Shown here piece by piece: positions 562 to 33,744 of a DNA stretch of 64,000 nt. Each line of letters starts with the position of its first letter. The stretch's first letter is position 1. This DNA is from a phage. Made by a program: the position numbers and the translations under genes. The notes under the pieces were generated by a model. That model had not been told where the DNA came from. It was given only the letters and a program-made list of their open reading frames with translations, and ran no database searches. The stretch is from the sequence record PZ386957.1; one strand, 5' to 3'.

Positions 562-1490
562 TGTTTGATTTAAATGATTTCAACGAACAAGCTGCAAACC
601 TTGATTTTCAACGTTCTAACCTATTTTCGGTGGCGTTTGCCACCGTTCCTAGTAGCAAGACGCAACAAGTTTTAGAAAATTTTGGTGGCGCTGTTTACGA
701 CCTTATTCCCGGAACTCTCAATGATGTTTTTGGTATAACTAGCGGTGAATATACCGATGCAGTAACTCATTTGGCTATACAAGGTGTGCGCAAAGTAACA
801 GGTTCCAGTGGCGTTAAAAAGTATTTGTTAGGTGCAATGTCCTCCCGTGTTGTTCAATCTCTATTGGGGCAATTCACTGTAGGTACATATGTCATGGATT
901 GGTTTAATATGGCATATCAAACAAGCGGATTGCTAGTCTATGCAGTGAAAGTGCCGGAAAATAGACTGAGCTATGAAATGGATCGTAACCATAACGCGCC
1001 AAACGTTCGTATTACCGGACGTGATTTCGACCCGCTTGTATTGAGCTTTAGAATGGACGCTAGCGCATCAAATTATAGAGCAATGCAGGATTGGGTTAAC
1101 TCGGTCGAAGATCCCGTTACAGGGCTTCGTGCGCTTCCGGTAGACGTTGAAGCAGATATTCAGGTCAACTTGCATAACCGTATGGGTGTACCTCACACTA
1201 TTATGATGTTTGGTGGTTGTATTCCTGTCGGTGTAAGTGCGCCTGAGTTGAGTTATGAAAATAACAACGAGATTACTACATTCGACGTTACCTTTGCTTA
1301 TCGTACAATGCAAGTTGGTGCGGTGGGTGAACAAGCCGCTAGAGAATGGGTTGAAGATAAGGCCATAAACCTAATTCAAAATACTATTGGTCAAGGTAAG
1401 GATAATTCATTGTCTTCTGCTGGTAGTGCATTATCTAGATTGCAAGGTGTTGGTGGTAGGGTAGTTAATACTATCACCAGATTATTTTAA
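561..1490 (+). CDS. 54: baseplate tail tube initiator gp54
   Basis: 309 aa ORF whose start overlaps the previous stop (ATGA); size and position match T4 gp54 (320 aa), followed by alt as in T4. Confidence 0.6.
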   Translation: MFDLNDFNEQAANLDFQRSNLFSVAFATVPSSKTQQVLENFGGAVYDLIPGTLNDVFGITSGEYTDAVTHLAIQGVRKVTGSSGVKKYLLGAMSSRVVQSLLGQFTVGTYVMDWFNMAYQTSGLLVYAVKVPENRLSYEMDRNHNAPNVRITGRDFDPLVLSFRMDASASNYRAMQDWVNSVEDPVTGLRALPVDVEADIQVNLHNRMGVPHTIMMFGGCIPVGVSAPELSYENNNEITTFDVTFAYRTMQVGAVGEQAAREWVEDKAINLIQNTIGQGKDNSLSSAGSALSRLQGVGGRVVNTITRLF

Positions 1491-1493
1491 TAC

Positions 1494-1521
1494 AAAAAAG
1501 GGGCATAGCGCCCCTTTTATT
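1494..1521 (+). terminator. rho-independent terminator hairpin (GGGGC-atag-GCCCC + T-run), potentially bidirectional
   Basis: aaaaaaGGGGCatagcGCCCCttttatt immediately after the gp54 stop. Confidence 0.7.
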
Positions 1522-2032
1522 ATTTGATTAGATCATCACATTGCTTACGTAGTTTATATTTGTATTCTTTAGAACGTAGCATTTGTACTTTTTCATAATC
1601 TCCTTCCTGAAATGCAGACGAGAGATCATCTTGATATGCTGCCTCCGTTCCAATAACACACATACCAAATTTACGACGTTGATCCGCTTCTTCCATAGCT
1701 TTGCGGTTCATTTCTTCAATTGAATTTTCACGACCATAATAATATTCGTAAATGCGTTTCTTCTCTGCTTCTTTATCGGCTTTAATCTTTGCGATCTGTT
1801 CTGCTGATTCCGGCTGACGGCCTAAACGCTGTAATGCCGCATCTTTCTTTTCAAGATAGTTAATCACGCAATCTTCAACACTATTGAATGGAAAACGTGG
1901 TTCTTGCTGCCATCGTGCACATGAGCGTGCAAACTCTTGTGTATTCTTAGATGCAAGTGCCAGGTCATGCACAGCGCACCCATTAAGCATAGCCACTAAA
2001 GCCGCAAGACCAATCAGTTTAATCATTTTCAT
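1520..2032 (-). CDS. putative lipoprotein
   Basis: N-terminal signal peptide MKMIKLIGLAALVAMLNGC with lipobox-like Cys; 170 aa. Confidence 0.5.
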   Translation of the reverse strand: MKMIKLIGLAALVAMLNGCAVHDLALASKNTQEFARSCARWQQEPRFPFNSVEDCVINYLEKKDAALQRLGRQPESAEQIAKIKADKEAEKKRIYEYYYGRENSIEEMNRKAMEEADQRRKFGMCVIGTEAAYQDDLSSAFQEGDYEKVQMLRSKEYKYKLRKQCDDLIK

Positions 2033-26853: not shown

Positions 26854-28086
26854 TTATACTGCCATCGGTGCTGGAATCGCTGGATGGCTTTGATAGTTGA
26901 GTATCTTAAAGTCTTTCGGAGTCTTTGTCAATACCTCATCTAAAGATTTAAATTCCGGTAGTTCAATTGTTGGTTTATCGAACGGAACACGTTTTAATTG
27001 CTCCATTGATTGTTCAAAGTGGTTTTTGTAAATGTGGCAATCGCCTACACTCATAACCAATTCACCAACTTCTAACCCGCAAATCTGGGCGATAATATGC
27101 GTTAACAGTGCATAGCTCGCAATGTTAAAAGACGCGCCTAAAAATAAATCTTGGCTGCGTTGCCACCACATACAAGACAGCTTACCATTATCTACATAGA
27201 ATTGCACCATCGGATGACATACGCCTAATACAGCATTATGTGTTCCTTGTACGTTCCATGAATCCATTACAATGCGACGACTATACGGATCATTCTTGAT
27301 TAAGTCAATCACGTTTTGTAACTGGTCTTCCCAAATCTTCGGGCGATAGACATATTCTTCATCGTCTTTGGTGCTCGATGTGTCTACGTCCATACTAGCA
27401 AAGATCGTGGTATCTGGTGCTAAAATATCCCCACCAAGATAATCACCATCAAGCAGATAACCGAAATAACCATCATCTACCCATTCCTGGAATCCCCACA
27501 AGCAATATGCATCATTAACAAAATTAGATTGAGTCTTCCAGTGGTCTGCTACTAAGAATAGATTATATTCAGAATCAAACTCTTCATAACGCATACCACG
27601 CCAGATAGCACATAAACGGCTTTCTGTTTCATTGGTTGGCGTAAAGTCTTCTACCCACGGGTGCTTAAATGTATGCGTGTATTTGCTTTTAACGCGCTTA
27701 ATTTTGATTTCACCGTATGGGTGAATCGGTTTGCGTCGCCATGCCATACCATACATATTACCAACATTATAACCGTTGAATCGTAGCGGATTCTTTTCTT
27801 TCATATCAAGACAGTTACCGCGCCAAATATCAAAGGCTTCTTCATCGAATTTACCGCGTGTGATTTCCTGCAATCGACGGCGGTCAAGTGATCCTTCCAT
27901 AAACCATAGCAATTCGCCAATTACAGAGGCTGTAGCCATCTTTTTAGTAGTCAGTAATGGGAAACCCTTGCTTAAATCAATTCGCATCTCTGCGCCGAAT
28001 TTAGAGAGCGTACCGACCCCCGTGCGGTCTTCACGAGGCCAGCCATTATCAAGAACATCACGCAACAGTTTCAAATATTCTTTCAT
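26854..28086 (-). CDS. td: thymidylate synthase (ThyA-type) with a large internal insertion; no intron
   Basis: ThyA motifs ...DRTGVGT..., catalytic VCHPMVQFYV, FNIASYALL; 410 aa, about 120 aa longer than typical ThyA. Confidence 0.8.
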   Translation of the reverse strand: MKEYLKLLRDVLDNGWPREDRTGVGTLSKFGAEMRIDLSKGFPLLTTKKMATASVIGELLWFMEGSLDRRRLQEITRGKFDEEAFDIWRGNCLDMKEKNPLRFNGYNVGNMYGMAWRRKPIHPYGEIKIKRVKSKYTHTFKHPWVEDFTPTNETESRLCAIWRGMRYEEFDSEYNLFLVADHWKTQSNFVNDAYCLWGFQEWVDDGYFGYLLDGDYLGGDILAPDTTIFASMDVDTSSTKDDEEYVYRPKIWEDQLQNVIDLIKNDPYSRRIVMDSWNVQGTHNAVLGVCHPMVQFYVDNGKLSCMWWQRSQDLFLGASFNIASYALLTHIIAQICGLEVGELVMSVGDCHIYKNHFEQSMEQLKRVPFDKPTIELPEFKSLDEVLTKTPKDFKILNYQSHPAIPAPMAV

Positions 28087-28345: not shown

Positions 28346-28420
28346 TGTTTACAACGTCCACCGATAAACAGTAACACTTCACCGCAATGCTTGCACTCAT
28401 AATCTGTCAGAATTTTCATG

Positions 28421-29020
28421 TTACGCCTTCTTACGTTCTAAAATTTGTTCGCTGATCAGGTAATCATCAAGGAAGTAATTATGTTCTTCTTTTGTTGCAA
28501 AGTCAAAATATAATTCATGAATCATTTCCTTAGAGATACCAACATCATATTCAAACGGATCATTAATCCCTGCTCGTTGAACATATGTTAACACAATACG
28601 ATCCGCAAAGTCAACTGCTTTTTCAATCAGGGAAGGTCCACCGATAACACTTACCAAACCTTGCGTTTTCTCTAGGACTTTTAATAAATCCTTCAATTCA
28701 TTATCATTAGTAATCGCGGTATACACATCAGGTTGGTCGCCATTTTTTGTTTTCGGTGCTGGATTGCTTGTATCGGTGCTAACAACCACATTCAAACGTC
28801 CCCAAAGTGCTTTAGGCAGACTTTCAAAGGTATTACGTCCCATTACTACCGCAGCAAAATCAACCTCGCCAATAGTGCGAATTTTAAAGTTTTCCATATC
28901 CTTTTTGATTGGACGACCCCACGGTAAACCGCCTTTAAAACCAAAAGCCCAATTTTCATCCGACATTTTAGTGTCACCAATCGCAAATACACATTGAATC
29001 ATAATATAATCTCCTGTCAA
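28421..29020 (-). CDS. frd: dihydrofolate reductase
   Basis: DHFR-like N-terminus ...FAIGD... and GGPSLIE-type cofactor region; 199 aa (T4 Frd 193 aa); adjacent to td. Confidence 0.75.
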   Translation of the reverse strand: MTGDYIMIQCVFAIGDTKMSDENWAFGFKGGLPWGRPIKKDMENFKIRTIGEVDFAAVVMGRNTFESLPKALWGRLNVVVSTDTSNPAPKTKNGDQPDVYTAITNDNELKDLLKVLEKTQGLVSVIGGPSLIEKAVDFADRIVLTYVQRAGINDPFEYDVGISKEMIHELYFDFATKEEHNYFLDDYLISEQILERKKA

Positions 29021-29346
29021 ATCAGTTTAAAGAAGTTTTCGTTTACATTTTCTTCGTTAATTTCTGTTTTAAACACTGTGCCATCATCAGGGCAGACATA
29101 ATAGCGTTCTGAATAGTCACGATACTTTTTCAGTAGACTGACACCAACATTAACACCATTTTCCCAGAAACGGAAGATAATTTTATCGGCAGTGTAACGA
29201 TAATCACTTTGAATCAGGCTACCATCACCGCGACGAGACTCATAAATCGTAATACAATTGCGGTTGGCTGTATTAAGACATTCCTCGATAGTACCACAAG
29301 ACAGAATTTCGATTGATCCGTTAACTTCTTGTTCTACAGTCCACAT
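29017..29346 (-). CDS. hypothetical protein (start trimmed to internal Met)
   Basis: SD GTGAGGA precedes the internal ATG (MWTVEQ...); the ORF-track N-terminus is leader read-through. Confidence 0.4.
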   Translation of the reverse strand: MWTVEQEVNGSIEILSCGTIEECLNTANRNCITIYESRRGDGSLIQSDYRYTADKIIFRFWENGVNVGVSLLKKYRDYSERYYVCPDDGTVFKTEINEENVNENFFKLI

Positions 29347-29393
29347 AATGTAATCCTCACTTTGTTTCGATGTATGCATTATACAATACTATG

Positions 29394-30830
29394 TTACTTT
29401 GTCAACTCTTTTTCAAAAGATTTTACGATATACATGATGGTGCTCAATTCGGACGGTGCTACTGTCTCTGTGTAGCCATCCGGCATATCTTCTTTTGAGA
29501 TATAGGAAGTTTTACCTTTCATCGCTTCCTTGATTTTGTTCTCTAAGTCTAAGATCTTTTGTCCGTCTTGTAAAGTCAATTCATAAAAGATCTCGTGGTC
29601 GAACTTAGAAACGCGAGATTGTTGTCTCATCCTTTTGACCGCATCTTTATTTGTAATTCCAAATTTAACACCAACAAAAGAATTTTTGTATATTAATTTT
29701 TGTACATATAAACACCCACTTATAACAGTAGAATAACCAGATTTTGCGCAATTTGGACACCTGTGCCCATGAGAGACAAACTTATTATATGTGCTTTGAT
29801 ATAAGTGGTTATTTGGACACATGAATTCGATTTTCGTCTTCATCACCCCAATATATTTTCCACCAACAAACCTCAAAAATTTATGTTCTTTTGCAACAGA
29901 TTTTATTTCATCAACTACTGCTTCTTCTGTTTTTAAAGTCACCCCTTGACAAATCGCACATTTACTTCCTTTGATTAAAGAAGAAAATGACACAATATAA
30001 TCATGACCTTTTTCACATCTCATATTAAGTTTTGTTGTTACACCTTTATATTTTCCGCCAACAAAACCCAAAAAAGTATAAGACCCTTTTTTCTTGATGA
30101 TTTCTTTTATCGCTTCATTTTCGTTTCGACGAATTCCACCATAGCAAAACTCGCAGCGACATTTTTTGATGACGTTGGATACTTTTCTGTTATAGATGTG
30201 ACCTTCTTTACACATTAAAGATACTAATAAATCGGATGTAACCTTATCTTTATTGTTTTCTACACACAATACTGTATCATTCGTCGAAGTTGCCAATCGA
30301 TTTAATAATTCTTTTTCTTGTATTCTTTTTTCCTTACCGATTTTATTGTAGAAGCATTTAGCACATTTACGTCCACTTATATATGAAATATATGACGTTT
30401 CATATATATGTCCTCGGTCACACATAACACGAAGTTTCGTTTTTGTAGATCCTATATATTTTCCACCAACAAATTCAATAAATTTATAGTCGGTTCTTTT
30501 ATCTATGTTATTTCTAGCTTTATGTTCACTAATAGGATTCCTGTTTGAATTCGCGCATCGCAAGCATCTTTTTCCTTGAGATAAAGATGTTATTGTCGTT
30601 TCGTATAAGTGTCCATTTGAGCACGTTAATGAAATTTTAGTTTTACTACCCTTCCAATCATCAATAAACCCGTTAAACGTATAATTGTTATCTTCGCACA
30701 TTTTAATGATCATTTGTTCATATTCTTTCGGTGATTTAGCCAGCCCATGCAGCTTTTTTACTTGTGCGTCTTTATAAAAATAAGTTTTCATCATTTTATC
30801 CTCCGTTGTTTCGATGTGTGTATTATACAT
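29394..30830 (-). CDS. five tandem Cys4 zinc-ribbon repeats plus C-terminal T5orf172/GIY-YIG-like domain protein
   Basis: Five repeats of ~FxGGKYxGxxTK...CxxGHxY...GxxCxxC, then GCLYVQKL...VGVKFGITNKDAVKR...DGYTETV. Confidence 0.5.
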   Translation of the reverse strand: MYNTHIETTEDKMMKTYFYKDAQVKKLHGLAKSPKEYEQMIIKMCEDNNYTFNGFIDDWKGSKTKISLTCSNGHLYETTITSLSQGKRCLRCANSNRNPISEHKARNNIDKRTDYKFIEFVGGKYIGSTKTKLRVMCDRGHIYETSYISYISGRKCAKCFYNKIGKEKRIQEKELLNRLATSTNDTVLCVENNKDKVTSDLLVSLMCKEGHIYNRKVSNVIKKCRCEFCYGGIRRNENEAIKEIIKKKGSYTFLGFVGGKYKGVTTKLNMRCEKGHDYIVSFSSLIKGSKCAICQGVTLKTEEAVVDEIKSVAKEHKFLRFVGGKYIGVMKTKIEFMCPNNHLYQSTYNKFVSHGHRCPNCAKSGYSTVISGCLYVQKLIYKNSFVGVKFGITNKDAVKRMRQQSRVSKFDHEIFYELTLQDGQKILDLENKIKEAMKGKTSYISKEDMPDGYTETVAPSELSTIMYIVKSFEKELTK

Positions 30831-30881
30831 TACCGTATCAGCATGTCAACACTTTTTTATAAATTTTTAGGCAATAAAAAA

Positions 30882-30899
30882 GCCTCCCCGAAGGGAGGC
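30882..30899 (-). terminator. rho-independent terminator downstream of gene 32
   Basis: GCCTCCC-cgaa-GGGAGGC hairpin with adjacent T-run on the - strand. Confidence 0.65.
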
Positions 30900-30910
30900 C
30901 GTAAAATTCA

Positions 30911-31879
30911 TTAAAGATTCAGGAGAGAATCAAGATCATCAAGATCAGAAGCGGAAGAAGTACCGCCACTCAGGTCCAGAGATGCCATCAGATCATCAGC
31001 GGAAGAATCTGACGCCGTGCTAGCTGCGGTAATACCAGAATCGAATGCATTTAAAGCAGCGTCAAAATCATCAAGCTGGCTGTTAATAGCTGCCGCAGCA
31101 CCAGAAGCCGAAGCACCAGCTACCAGACTTACACCTTTAACTTTCTTAAATTTAGCATCCAGTTCCTCAAAAGATTTAAACTGGTCTTTTGCTACGATAA
31201 CATCAATATCTACCATGTTTTCGAACAGATATTTCTGGAATGCTTCATCTTCGATGTTCGGAATCGCTGATTGCTGCATGAAACGTGAATCATCGTAGTT
31301 CAGGAATTTATCTACTTTCTTAGCTTTCAGAAGGAAGTTAGCGCCTTCGAACGGACATACGATGTTTACAGGTTTTTCGCCCAATTCCGTGTTTACGTTG
31401 CTCATTGCCAGAATCTTGTCATAAATTTTCTTACCGAAGCGGAATTTAAATACTTTACCTTCGTTTTCCGGCGCTTTCGGATCTTTCATTACCAGAATGT
31501 TTGCGAAGTAAGAAGATTTACGCTTAACATCTTGATATTCTTTATTGTTGGTGTTGTACAGGTCATTTTCGCTAATGTATTTGCACACAGGGCAAGAATC
31601 AAAATCACCGTGGGTGCTAGGGCAGTTTTCCCAATAATACTTACCATTTACTTTGAAAGAATGGTTTACAAGGTTGATGATCGGTAAACCGTCTTCGGTG
31701 CGTGCTGGAAGAAAACGAATCACCGCTTCACCGTTACCCGCCGCGTCAGTTTTAATCTTCCACTCTTTCGGATCTTCTTTGGAGAAGCCGTTGCTACCTT
31801 TCAGTGCTGCCAGTTGAGCTTGCAGTTTGGAAGAATCTTGACGACGAAAAATGTTCATAATTATACCTCTTTTATACAT
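30911..31879 (-). CDS. 32: single-stranded DNA-binding protein gp32
   Basis: Zn-binding region [27 protein letters not shown]; acidic Ser/Asp-rich C-terminus; 322 aa. Confidence 0.85.
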
Positions 31880-31924
31880 TAACTATTAATTTGCTAGATT
31901 ATTATACAGATTTAAATTTACTTG

Positions 31925-32605
31925 TCAACTATTTGTTTCGGCTTTTAATTGAGATATTTCTTTACACTCTTTAACTACTTTAACAAATAATGCTCTTGCT
32001 TTTGCGGCGTCAATAACAAGTAGTTTCTTGTACGCCTTCATTTTAACACTGTAAGTTTGCCAAATCAAGTCTTTGGCTACCTTGTCGTGTTCGTCGATTA
32101 TATTTAGAAAGCTATCTAACAACATAAACGACTCAAACGATATAATCCGATTTTGCAGTAGTTTAAAAATACCGCTTGTTTCGGTTGCGGGATTATATGT
32201 AATTAGCTCTTTAAGAGTAACCCCGCGTTTCTCTGAGAAGTATACCAGACTTTTAATGTCATCGTCAAATCGTGTTGCAGCATCAGTGATCTTACCGATA
32301 TACTCCATGTAAAATCCGTATGCGTCAACATCAGTGATTTCACCTACCCATGCATCGGTATTAGCTACCAGATTGCTTAGGAATAGGAAGTATAATTCTC
32401 TTAGATTGTACTTATCCGCTAATTTCGCGAAATAATACTTATCTCTGCGTTTATTGAATGCGGCATCAGACAACCGCATCCTCCAATTATATTTTACGCA
32501 ATCATAACGCCCGTTCATATGAGCTTTCATCATGCAATATAACATATACACAGATTTAGCATTAACTCGCATATCTGGATCTGGAGGAAGACGGTTTCTG
32601 ATCAT
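31925..32605 (-). CDS. 59: helicase loader gp59
   Basis: 226 aa with strings recalled from T4 gp59 (KSVY.LY.M...HMNG.YD..KYNW.MR.SDAA..KRRDKY, FISNLVAN.DAW). Confidence 0.75.
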   Translation of the reverse strand: MIRNRLPPDPDMRVNAKSVYMLYCMMKAHMNGRYDCVKYNWRMRLSDAAFNKRRDKYYFAKLADKYNLRELYFLFLSNLVANTDAWVGEITDVDAYGFYMEYIGKITDAATRFDDDIKSLVYFSEKRGVTLKELITYNPATETSGIFKLLQNRIISFESFMLLDSFLNIIDEHDKVAKDLIWQTYSVKMKAYKKLLVIDAAKARALFVKVVKECKEISQLKAETNS

Positions 32606-33141: not shown

Positions 33142-33744
33142 TTAACCCTCTTTACTAATTAATTGAAAACCACGTTCAGCTTTAGAAATCGTGCTAGGTT
33201 GTAAATCAGCGTTCACATATTCTAGCATCATTTCTCTGATAATGTCAAGTGCTTTTTCGTCACCTGATTTTAATTCGAACTCAAGTTCATAATGAGTATT
33301 AACAGCATCGAATTCACCATATACATCTCCATAGTAGAAATTGTCTTTGCACATTTCTACTATACCATATCCAACATCAAGTGTAAACACCCTGCGATTT
33401 GTCATTACTTGCAATCGCGGTAAAACATTATTGGAGTTTATGTCTAGACCATCAACAAACTTATCAAAATCAGAAAATGTTGAAAATGTAATTTCTTCTC
33501 GGTTGAATAACCCAGATTCACTACCACCAAACTTGACCATGATCAATTCTTTTTCAACGTCAAGTCGTGCGTAAATTCCTTTACGTCGTAGTGCTAGGTC
33601 ATCGGTGTCATAATAAAATTCGTTTTTGGTGTAGGCATTTCTGCTTACAATATGATAACCATCACACATTGCTACCCACGCATCTAATATAGAATCTTCA
33701 CCATCACATGAGCTTGCGTAGTATTTTAATTCAAGTTCTTTCAT
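33142..33744 (-). CDS. CYTH-like (triphosphate tunnel metalloenzyme / class IV adenylyl cyclase-like) domain protein
   Basis: N-terminal ExExK-type strand MKELELKYY, C-terminal YELEFELK, ~200 aa, consistent with a CYTH fold; an extra gene between rnh and dsbA relative to T4. Confidence 0.45.
   Translation of the reverse strand: MKELELKYYASSCDGEDSILDAWVAMCDGYHIVSRNAYTKNEFYYDTDDLALRRKGIYARLDVEKELIMVKFGGSESGLFNREEITFSTFSDFDKFVDGLDINSNNVLPRLQVMTNRRVFTLDVGYGIVEMCKDNFYYGDVYGEFDAVNTHYELEFELKSGDEKALDIIREMMLEYVNADLQPSTISKAERGFQLISKEG

Follow-up and report, generated by a model that had tools for sequence, protein, structure and literature searches.

The gene between frd and gene 32 in the phage DNA studied here (record PZ386957.1; the whole stretch analysed, 64,000 nucleotides, is referred to as the window) belongs, in our reasonably confident reading, to the CapR/T5orf172 class of homing-endonuclease-type genes, as a free-standing member in a Krischvirus phage. 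Judging from its sequence, the gene product is probably a selfish site-specific DNA-cutting enzyme. The original prediction had proposed a sequence-specific DNA-binding nuclease or a degenerate homing endonuclease. The core of that proposal is supported and is the most likely reading; degeneracy is not favoured, because the family-invariant residues are intact and the catalytic-type domain is under purifying selection. An architecture of CapR repeats joined to a T5orf172 domain has already been described in other phages (Barth, Dunham and Seed 2023, PMC10448857).

The gene and its expression signals

The phage is an RB49-like (Krischvirus), T4-type phage. The mechanically called ORF of 478 aa was confirmed at 29394..30830 on the minus strand, flanked by gene 32 (30911..31879) and frd (28421..29020), so that frd/td and gene 32 are its neighbours. 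The placement between frd and gene 32 therefore stands, with the addition of one small ORF (29017..29346, phrog_16287) that lies between the nuclease gene and frd. The 5′ end had been extended too far, by 36-39 nt. Since the first ATG of the mechanical ORF (30830) falls within the -10 hexamer of the gene's own promoter (30849..30822), translation probably starts at ATG 30794 or 30791, behind the sequence GGAGGA; homologues have N-termini of the type MKTYF... With the second of these starts the product would have 465 aa; the stop codon occupies 29394-29396. The features of the gene and its surroundings are as follows.

29394..30794, minus strand: probable real coding sequence of the CapR-repeat/T5orf172-like nuclease, 466 aa from ATG 30794
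30799..30804, minus strand: Shine-Dalgarno sequence GGAGGA, 4 nt from ATG 30794 and 7 nt from ATG 30791
30822..30849, minus strand: perfect sigma-70 early-type promoter TTGACA-16-TATAAT, 12/12 matches
30881..30900, minus strand: terminator-like stem-loop downstream of gene 32, GGCCTCCC-TTCG-GGGAGGCT and then a T run
29364..29405, minus strand: second copy of the promoter cassette, TTGACA-16-TATAAT plus RCAYACATCGAAAC, overlapping the nuclease stop codon

The gene thus has its own expression signals (terminator, consensus promoter and Shine-Dalgarno sequence) and a site beside conserved essential genes, which is a trait of homing genes. Some T4 seg and mob genes have a hairpin that sequesters the ribosome-binding site; no such hairpin was found for the nuclease gene (z = 0.68). 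The window holds no paralogue of the gene, and a collection of 5.8 billion proteins did not contain the exact protein. Other endonuclease genes are close by, namely an HNH ORF within nrdA and an HNH_3+AP2 ORF, which bears out the view of the locus as rich in mobile endonucleases.

The terminator-like element supplies the stem-loop half of a cassette of the PeSL type (as defined in PMC2839356). The upstream copy of the cassette (30900..30822) comprises promoter and stem-loop, the downstream copy the promoter part only, and the latter drives the small ORF 29017..29346. Together the two copies form a direct repeat of about 70-80 bp on both sides of the nuclease gene; the 42-nt promoter cassette occurs twice in the window, with 0 occurrences expected. 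Insertion, deletion and replacement mediated by PeSLs have been documented in RB49 and phi1 (Arbiol et al. 2010, PMC2839356), in a paper that does not discuss the nuclease ORF.

An array of CapR-type zinc modules

The N-terminal part of the protein consists of five tandem repeats of about 65 aa, four of them well formed and one, repeat 3, degenerate. That there are five repeats, as first noticed by eye, is real: by BLOSUM62 local scores nine of the ten repeat pairs lie 6-24 sd above shuffles, and the pair of repeats 3 and 5 lies 3 sd above. Residue numbers refer to the 478-aa ORF.

30549..30791, minus strand: repeat 1, aa 14-94, C70-x3-H74 ... C89-x2-C92
30348..30548, minus strand: repeat 2, aa 95-161, FIEFVGGKYIG ... 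C137-x3-H141 ... C156-x2-C159
30138..30347, minus strand: repeat 3, degenerate, aa 162-231, C207-x3-H211 ... C226-x2-C229 kept
29943..30137, minus strand: repeat 4, aa 232-296, FLGFVGGKYKG ... C272-x3-H276 ... C291-x2-C294
29742..29942, minus strand: repeat 5, aa 297-363, FLRFVGGKYIG ... C338-x3-H342 ... C358-x2-C361

Each repeat contains two putative ligand pairs, at aa 70-92, 137-159, 207-229, 272-294 and 338-361, in the order C-x3-H, 14-15 residues, C-x2-C. This agrees with the two metal-ligand pairs, some 15-26 residues apart, that characterize CapR/DUF4379 modules. The modules had been described as Cys4 zinc ribbons. Neither half of that description was borne out: the ligand set is Cys-His-Cys-Cys (Cys3His) in all five units, repeat 3 having one additional Cys at position 224, and Pfam assigns the array to the CapR homology domain (PF21817; 3.5e-25, 88.4 bits against a gathering cut-off of 24.2, in four stretches) and to DUF4379, annotated as "probable treble clef" (PF14311; 2.9e-14, 53.5 bits against a cut-off of 24.5). 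Repeat 1, with a helix and three strands, gives the best CapR stretch of the array. In the predicted structure a helix starts at the C-x2-C pair of repeats 1 and 2, as is the case in a treble clef. The strand motif F-[LI]-x-F-V-G-G-K-Y, which had been ascribed to every repeat, is found only in repeats 2, 4 and 5; repeat 1 has a weak version of it (FNGFIDDWKG) and repeat 3 lacks it.

Most of repeats 1, 2, 4 and 5 are modelled with pLDDT of at least 90, and the pTM of the model is 0.40, which indicates that the modules are independent beads. Repeat 3 is the sole poorly predicted module (pLDDT 44-67); it shares at most 37% identity with any known repeat compared. Repeat 3 has a decayed appearance. 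A recent duplication of the repeats at the DNA level was considered and rejected: the repeats share only stretches of 49-68 nt with 71-73% identity and are therefore old.

A C-terminal domain of the T5orf172/MUG113 branch

The array is followed by a domain of nuclease type, in which the C-terminal motifs quoted in the original prediction are indeed present.

29397..29741, minus strand: C-terminal nuclease-type domain, aa 364-478 (115 aa), element order beta-beta-alpha-beta-alpha-alpha

When the whole protein and its C-terminal 124 aa alone were scanned with hmmscan, none of the PF10544, PF13455 and GIY-YIG profiles matched directly at E <= 10, nor did an NCBIfam scan for T5orf172/GIY-YIG give a match. 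The protein is, however, matched by phrog_681, annotated "endonuclease", at 1.6e-85. At E <= 1e-3, 2,136 cluster representatives match a profile built from the C-terminal domain; the matched region is C-terminal in nearly all of the matches listed. Among the best 121 of these 2,136 relatives (E <= 4e-21), 53 match PF13455 (MUG113) and 29 match PF10544 (T5orf172) at E <= 0.01. When ten relatives were scanned singly, four matched PF13455 or PF10544, in each case within the aligned C-terminal region (for example residues 520-588 of P0094 and 421-479 of P0054), some with scores above Pfam's cut-offs. The domain is thus homologous to proteins that match the two families in the same region. Since relatives found with the domain profile match PF13455 and PF10544, a lack of profile support, which was to have counted against the assignment, applies only in its narrowest form: the link to the T5orf172 branch runs through relatives, not through a direct match. 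Some of the BFVD matches (E 1e-8 to 4e-6) carry the names GIY-YIG domain, homing endonuclease or T5 Orf172 domain.

The fold is GIY-YIG-like, with a three-stranded sheet in the order beta-beta-alpha-beta-alpha, in agreement with the original assignment, and in the model the domain is complete and confidently folded. Across 122 sequences there is no variation in Y, K-x-G, R, E and G-x-x-E-T (Y375, K389, G391, R400, E430, G452, E455 and T456). The model places the invariant Tyr in strand 1, K-x-G in strand 2, Arg in helix 1 and Glu in helix 2. By motif order and predicted secondary structure, Y375, R400 and E430 would correspond to Y6, R27 and E75 of I-TevI. K-F-G replaces Y-x-G, so that the second Tyr that is canonical for GIY-YIG is a Lys here. 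In the final 75 codons dN/dS is 0.06-0.22; the domain is under purifying selection.

Against PDB sequences the domain profile retrieved only chance matches to designed repeat proteins, the top Foldseek match in the PDB was Slx1 (E 0.31), and hhalign with T4 I-TevI and SegG returned probabilities below 1%. PF01541 did not match, and the GIY...YIG motifs and N-terminal catalytic domain of canonical I-TevI/Seg-type enzymes are not found.

Alleles of the gene in related phages

A comparison of presence and absence across related phages, which had been suggested as a check, revealed alleles of 392-541 aa with 2-6 repeats in the same slot of Skers, JK32, Phi1, RB49 and JEP8. RefSeq names the Krischvirus alleles "endonuclease", and in Skers the allele is annotated "GIY-YIG nuclease family protein". 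In ECD7 an unrelated 109-aa ORFan lies between the same cassettes. The gene is therefore patchily present at an otherwise conserved locus, another trait of homing genes. The ECD7 ORF had no PHROG match. Its origin as a decayed remnant of the nuclease gene (by blastn the slot sequence has no similarity to that gene) or as a duplicate of the adjoining ORF, to which it also lacks similarity, was rejected. The gene replacement in ECD7 could equally stem from PeSL-mediated shuffling without nuclease action.

When the alleles are aligned, the gene divides into two parts.

29622..30768, minus strand: hypervariable segment, comprising the entire repeat array and ~29 codons at the start of the nuclease domain
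29397..29621, minus strand: conserved block at the 3′ end, comprising the last 75 codons

In the comparison with five other Krischvirus loci, the array (29712-30768) gave no usable similarity in DNA, and codons -104 to -76 show 61-72% identity with dS near saturation. The last 75 codons share 91-95% nucleotide and 93-97% amino acid identity with Phi1, RB49, JK32 and Skers, and by tblastn the block is 92-99% identical at the amino acid level in 24 phage records. RB49p240, Phi1 ORF240, JEP8_086 and other Krischvirus alleles have the slot, the promoter and the last 75 codons in common with the studied gene. The 3′ breakpoint of similarity lies inside the nuclease domain, ~225 nt upstream of the stop, and not at the downstream cassette; on the upstream side the breaks in DNA homology coincide with the cassette. 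Over most of their length the Krischvirus alleles are 41-47% identical to the studied protein, local matches of about half its length reaching 56%, and none of the repeats exceeds 49% identity to any repeat among 51 other proteins compared. The flanks are mosaic: on the gene 32 side identity is 96% with ECD7 and 81-82% with Phi1, RB49 and Skers, and on the frd side it is 84-89% with all five relatives.

Proposed mode of action and alternatives

From these features it is reasonable to propose the following scenario. Transcription would start early, at the consensus sigma-70 promoter of the gene. Like beads on a string, four well-formed Cys3His CapR-type modules and one degenerate module may each touch a short stretch of DNA and jointly read a long asymmetric site, as suggested by the Cys-dependent DNA binding of CapR (PMC8096241). 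The C-terminal T5orf172/MUG113-branch domain would then cut nearby by means of its conserved Tyr, Arg and Glu; here the model is ICP1 Odn, a T5orf172 nuclease that is inactive when the equivalent Glu is mutated (E180A; PMC8263062). By the same analogies we predict that the modules bind zinc and specific DNA sequences and that the C-terminal domain cleaves DNA in a metal-dependent manner. A break in a co-infecting relative without this allele would be repaired from the nuclease-carrying genome, and repair would spread the gene together with its neighbouring markers gene 32 and frd, making the locus a recombination boundary. Both flanking promoter cassettes and the final 75 codons are conserved, a pattern that could provide homology arms, through which arrays differing in repeat number and kind might be exchanged between phages.

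Rather than a homing element, the enzyme might be a weapon that cuts competitors such as co-infecting Krischvirus phages, satellites or host DNA, so that the diverse arrays would reflect an arms race over targets and not gene spread. We regard this as rather unlikely, even if there is a precedent: the T5orf172 nuclease Odn of ICP1 was domesticated for defence against satellites and cuts the PLE replication origin (PMC8263062). The gene is present in most of the close relatives sampled, including the 24 records with the 3′ block, and its nuclease half shows strong conservation next to arrays that differ greatly, both of which would suit a weapon. However, the DNA-binding modules are of the CapR type, which is typical of putative homing endonuclease genes, and not of the RepA_N type that Odn borrowed from a satellite, and a site beside essential genes at a mosaic junction is the classic pattern of a homing gene. 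T4 Seg and Mob enzymes both home and cut competitors, so the two readings are not exclusive.

It is decidedly unlikely that the gene is a mere passenger of PeSL cassette shuffling, its patchiness and allele diversity arising without any contribution of its own nuclease. Repeated promoter/terminator cassettes flank many non-essential genes in RB49-type phages, and the surroundings of the nuclease gene would fit such shuffling in several respects: the two copies of the 42-nt cassette bracket the gene, a stem-loop lies upstream, homology breaks at the upstream cassette, cassette-mediated rearrangements are on record for RB49 and phi1, and the ECD7 ORFan sits between the same cassettes. Against this, the 3′ breakpoint falls within the nuclease domain and not at the downstream cassette. 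As PeSL shuffling explains how the gene moves and not what the protein does, it is better seen as a complement to homing. A domesticated DNA-binding regulator, i.e. a non-cutting repressor or architectural protein that acts through its zinc modules like CapR of PLE, is highly improbable. CapR, the founder of the repeat family, descends from such genes and acts as a transcriptional repressor (PMC8096241), and both the missing direct match to nuclease profiles and the Lys at the second Tyr position would fit a loss of cleavage. Yet CapR has no nuclease domain, whereas here the domain is complete and confidently folded, its Tyr, Arg and Glu are invariant in the 122 relatives, and its dN/dS is low. 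The Lys itself is part of a Lys-x-Gly motif that is invariant across the family, of which many members match T5orf172/MUG113.

A bolder extension of the homing reading, which we consider unlikely, is a platform of one nuclease and many arrays. The fixed last 75 codons and the promoter would act as arms between which arrays are swapped, and, with each module reading a few base pairs and the contributions roughly adding up, alleles could retarget quickly. The alleles would then perhaps cut one another's locus in competition for one slot, and, if module-to-sequence rules exist, the array could in principle serve as a compact programmable scaffold for DNA recognition, like zinc-finger or TALE arrays.

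Significance of the gene

Work on homing in T4-type phages has dealt almost exclusively with Seg, Mob and intron enzymes, and the present gene extends the CapR/T5orf172 class into this group. The current understanding of the CapR/T5orf172 family itself is unchanged by these findings. Their practical value lies in correct annotation, as what is listed as a hypothetical protein in many RB49-like phages that are therapeutic candidates is a probable site-specific nuclease, and its gene probably drives or marks recombination in the surroundings of gene 32 and frd. The alleles, with the same promoter and catalytic C-terminal half and with unrelated arrays of 2-6 modules, constitute a ready-made natural experiment that could show how zinc modules specify targets and whether alleles compete for one slot.

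Comparison with known systems

The closest counterparts are T5orf172 homing endonuclease genes with repeated CapR/DUF723/DUF4379 zinc fingers, such as ICP1 gp174, a gene of Vibrio phage Helene and T5.141 (PMC10448857). T5.141 matches the studied protein at 2e-24, and ICP1 proteins match repeats 1-2. As in those genes, an N-terminal CapR-type array precedes a C-terminal T5orf172-type domain, the beads-on-a-string arrays vary in repeat number between alleles, and the genes lie next to essential genes at boundaries of genetic exchange. Unlike them, the studied gene belongs to a T4-type phage lineage (T4 itself has no T5orf172 genes; PMC10448857), its nuclease domain has diverged too far for a direct match to PF10544 or PF13455, and the last 75 codons are almost the same from allele to allele, the arrays being unrelated in DNA.

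CapR of PLE, the founder of PF21817, belongs to the same zinc-module family (Netter et al. 2021, PMC8096241). Its paired Cys residues are needed for DNA binding, as gel shifts with Cys-to-Ser mutants demonstrated (PMC8096241). It is, however, a single 15.5-kDa module that acts as a repressor without a nuclease domain, whereas five modules and an intact nuclease-type domain are joined here, and its first zinc knuckle is C-x2-C instead of C-x3-H. The catalytic domain of ICP1 Odn (gp88; Barth et al. 2021, PMC8263062) is of the same superfamily branch, and Odn is the only member for which site-specific cleavage and a catalytic Glu have been shown. Unlike the studied protein, it has a satellite-derived RepA_N DNA-binding domain and a role in anti-satellite defence.

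I-TevI and SegG of T4 also combine a nuclease with a tethered DNA-binding region and belong to the same general fold class. They show no detectable sequence similarity to the studied protein, in which Lys replaces the second Tyr, and the nuclease is N-terminal in I-TevI and Seg and C-terminal here. The DNA-binding part also differs, a zinc-module array here as against a single zinc finger in I-TevI's DNA-binding domain (PMC8096241). In T4 the slot between gene 32 and frd is occupied by frd.1-3, and SegG lies on the opposite side of gene 32; phage Skers has an HNH gene on that same side. Gene 32 is therefore a recurrent neighbourhood of homing genes.

Locus and start of the probable nuclease gene

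In the ORF listing of the window, the minus strand at 29394..30830 encodes a 478-aa ORF that lies between gene 32 and frd, with td as a further downstream neighbour. The locus contains the following elements:

30911..31879, gene 32, upstream of the nuclease gene
30900..30881 (minus), terminator-like stem-loop, 5' of the nuclease ORF
30849..30822 (minus), perfect promoter TTGACA-16-TATAAT, 5' of the nuclease ORF
30804..30799 (minus), GGAGGA, before ATG ATG at 30794 and 30791
29017..29346, 109-aa ORF of unknown function (phrog_16287), downstream
28421..29020, frd, downstream

Since the first ATG of the ORF (30830) falls within the -10 hexamer of this promoter, GGAGGA precedes the ATGs at 30794 and 30791, and the N-termini of homologues read MKTYF... 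or MLKTYF..., the true start probably lies 12-13 codons later than originally predicted, which would give a protein of about 465-466 aa. A search for an RBS-masking hairpin at the gene start found none.

The repeat array

The five tandem repeats (R1-R5, from N- to C-terminus) recognized in the original prediction are well supported. In pairwise local alignments nine of the ten pairs score 6-24 sd above shuffles, and only R3-R5 reaches no more than 3 sd. Each unit is closed by C-x2-C (aa 89, 156, 226, 291 and 358), and in all five C-x3-H lies 14-15 residues ahead of it. Therefore, the conserved ligands are Cys-His-Cys-Cys and not Cys4, as had been proposed. The motif F-x-x-F-V-G-G-K-Y is present in R2, R4 and R5, variant in R1 and lost from R3. 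As DNA similarity among the repeats is limited to stretches of 49-68 nt with 71-73% identity, the duplications must be old. In Pfam, the modules are matched by the CapR homology domain (PF21817, 3.5e-25, four stretches) and by DUF4379, a 'probable treble clef' (PF14311, 2.9e-14). A full-length AlphaFold model (mean pLDDT 86.8, pTM 0.40) predicts a helix, three strands and a short helix in each repeat, with pLDDT mostly at least 90 in R1, R2, R4 and R5 whereas R3 shows 44-67. In the model, C-x2-C of R1 and R2 opens a helix in treble-clef-like fashion.

The C-terminal domain

The C-terminal segment had been likened to T5orf172/GIY-YIG domains. In a direct search, hmmscan matched none of PF10544 (T5orf172), PF13455 (MUG113) and GIY-YIG at E <= 10, even with the isolated domain; an NCBIfam scan of the protein yielded nothing useful, and PHROGs returned phrog_681, 'endonuclease' (1.6e-85). 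The likeness is supported indirectly by transitive homology and conserved residues. At E <= 1e-3, a domain profile built from 15 sequences matched 2,136 cluster representatives, of which 1,049 remained at E <= 1e-10; in nearly all listed cases the match fell at the C-terminus. Among the best 121 of these 2,136 relatives, CapR was found in 86, PF13455 in 53 and PF10544 in 29 (E <= 0.01). Four of ten relatives scanned singly matched PF13455 or PF10544, in all four cases at the aligned C-terminal region and in some above Pfam cut-offs. Invariant in 122 sequences are Y, K-x-G, R, E and G-x-x-E-T, which in the predicted structure of the domain lie, in this order, on strands 1 and 2, on helices 1 and 2 and in the loop after helix 2. 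Mapped by inspection, this is the order of GIY, YxG, R27, E75 and GYN in I-TevI. Neither profile comparison with I-TevI or SegG nor a search of PDB sequences with the domain profile found anything. Taken together, these comparisons place the protein on the T5orf172/MUG113 branch as a diverged member, and not among the canonical GIY-YIG enzymes.

Strand 2 of the domain contains FVGVKF, and the DNA for this stretch (29663..29678) resembles that encoding FVGGKY in R5, R4 and R2 (located at 29855..29870, 30050..30065 and 30458..30473, respectively), with 81-88% identity over 16 nt. This may be due to chance or represent a short homology usable in recombination.

Alleles and promoter cassettes

A megablast search with 28400-32000 as query assigns the window to RB49-like coliphages of the genus Krischvirus, with top DNA identities of 90-92%. 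Query coverage does not exceed 71% in any record because the middle of the query is unmatched. Comparison of related phages, proposed with the original prediction, revealed alleles in the same slot of five phages:

Phi1 ORF240, 460 aa
RB49p240, 485 aa, RefSeq name 'endonuclease'
JK32_00236, 412 aa
Skers_100, 392 aa, named 'GIY-YIG nuclease family protein'
JEP8_086, 541 aa

In ECD7 the slot is occupied by an unrelated 109-aa ORFan without PHROG match (ECD7 locus sequence 1303..1632), flanked by the same promoter cassettes as the nuclease gene elsewhere in Krischvirus. Alleles carry 2-6 repeats. Among 5.8 billion proteins searched, the closest is at most 56% identical to the present one, and over most of the length identity is only 41-47%. 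None of the repeats of this allele exceeds 49% identity to any repeat in the 51 other proteins compared, and R3 has no real relative among those repeats. One homologue, P0035, is a two-repeat allele with a Krischvirus-type C-terminus on a 4.4-kb contig labelled Bacillus atrophaeus at NCBI; this is probably phage contamination of the assembly.

By blastn, homology with the other loci extends from frd to 29711 and resumes at about 30769-30795; the array DNA shows none except for one 68-nt Phi1 match (74%). By tblastn, 24 phage records share the last 75 aa at 92-99% identity. Codon analysis of these last 75 codons gave 91-95% nucleotide identity, dS of 0.2-0.33 and dN/dS of 0.06-0.22; in the 29 codons before them, identity drops to 61-72% and dS is close to saturation. 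This sharp step relative to other Krischvirus alleles, at 29621/29622 within the nuclease domain, places an old recombination boundary midway through the catalytic domain rather than at a domain border.

The flanks also differ in their nearest relatives. The gene 32 side (30795..32000) is 96% identical to ECD7, 94% to JK32 and 81-82% to Phi1, RB49 and Skers, and the frd side (28400..29711) shows 84-89% identity to each of the five, which puts the gene at a mosaic junction. Two copies of a 42-nt consensus early-promoter cassette flank the gene, with 0 expected by chance:

30808..30849 (minus), upstream copy, adjoining the terminator stem-loop 30881..30900
29364..29405 (minus), downstream copy, overlapping the last codons and stop codon of the nuclease gene

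Owing to the adjoining stem-loop, the upstream copy is of the PeSL type (promoter plus stem-loop). The arrangement corresponds to the PeSL cassettes of RB49 and phi1, which mediate modular shuffling (PMC2839356), and the nuclease gene may be merely a passenger of such shuffling.

Relation to known systems and probable function

CapR, a PLE-encoded repressor, resembles the N-terminal domains of putative ICP1 homing endonucleases bearing a T5orf172 domain, and its DNA binding requires paired cysteines (PMC8096241). Barth, Dunham and Seed found CapR, DUF723 or DUF4379/4397 zinc-finger domains in 200 of 229 T5orf172 homing endonuclease genes, often several per protein as 'beads on a string'; the repeats recombine within and between genes, the genes are located at genetic-exchange boundaries, and T4 lacks them (PMC10448857). 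Thus, the architecture has already been described, and the present gene adds a member from a T4-type phage, a strongly diverged new allele and not a new class. For one T5orf172 protein, ICP1 Odn, site-specific DNA cleavage was shown, and the E180A mutant is inactive (PMC8263062).

We regard the structural assignment, a CapR-type array joined to a T5orf172-type nuclease domain, as highly probable. With moderate confidence, the most likely function is that of a free-standing homing-type endonuclease. The protein would be expressed early, use its four well-formed zinc modules and the degenerate one to read a long DNA site, and cleave by means of the tethered T5orf172-type domain; in this way it would favour both its own spread and recombination in the gene 32-frd region. 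The invariant residues are intact and dN/dS is low, which argues against a purely regulatory protein and also against the degenerate enzyme envisaged originally. Instead of homing, the nuclease may serve mainly to exclude competitors. Three details deserve attention: the Cys3His first knuckle of the repeats, the breakpoint midway through the nuclease domain, and a Krischvirus allele set with a common promoter and catalytic C-terminal half but unrelated arrays.

Other genes in the window

nrdA is spread over three ORFs (23141..26788, minus strand). This looks like a NrdA intein or split intein with an HNH endonuclease gene either carried by it or interrupting it. These ORFs and other features of the window are:

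25181..26788 (minus), nrdA ORF: ATP-cone, RNR N-terminal part, first half of the barrel, N-terminal part of the intein splicing domain
24171..25145 (minus), HNH ORF within nrdA, 324 aa, PF01844
23141..24178 (minus), nrdA ORF: C-terminal part of the intein splicing domain, remaining barrel
22011..22550 (minus), HNH_3 + AP2 protein, 179 aa, between the nrdA pieces and nrdB
20848..22011, nrdB
26854..28086 (minus), thymidylate synthase, 410 aa, Pfam match in two stretches
33142..33744 (minus), CYTH-domain protein, 200 aa, PF01928 (5.5e-8), adjoining the RNase H gene

The HNH_3 + AP2 protein represents a typical free-standing homing endonuclease. In thymidylate synthase, the second Pfam stretch (aa 254-410) begins at profile position 110, so the first ~250 residues must contain an insertion of about 125-140 aa, to which no domain was assigned.
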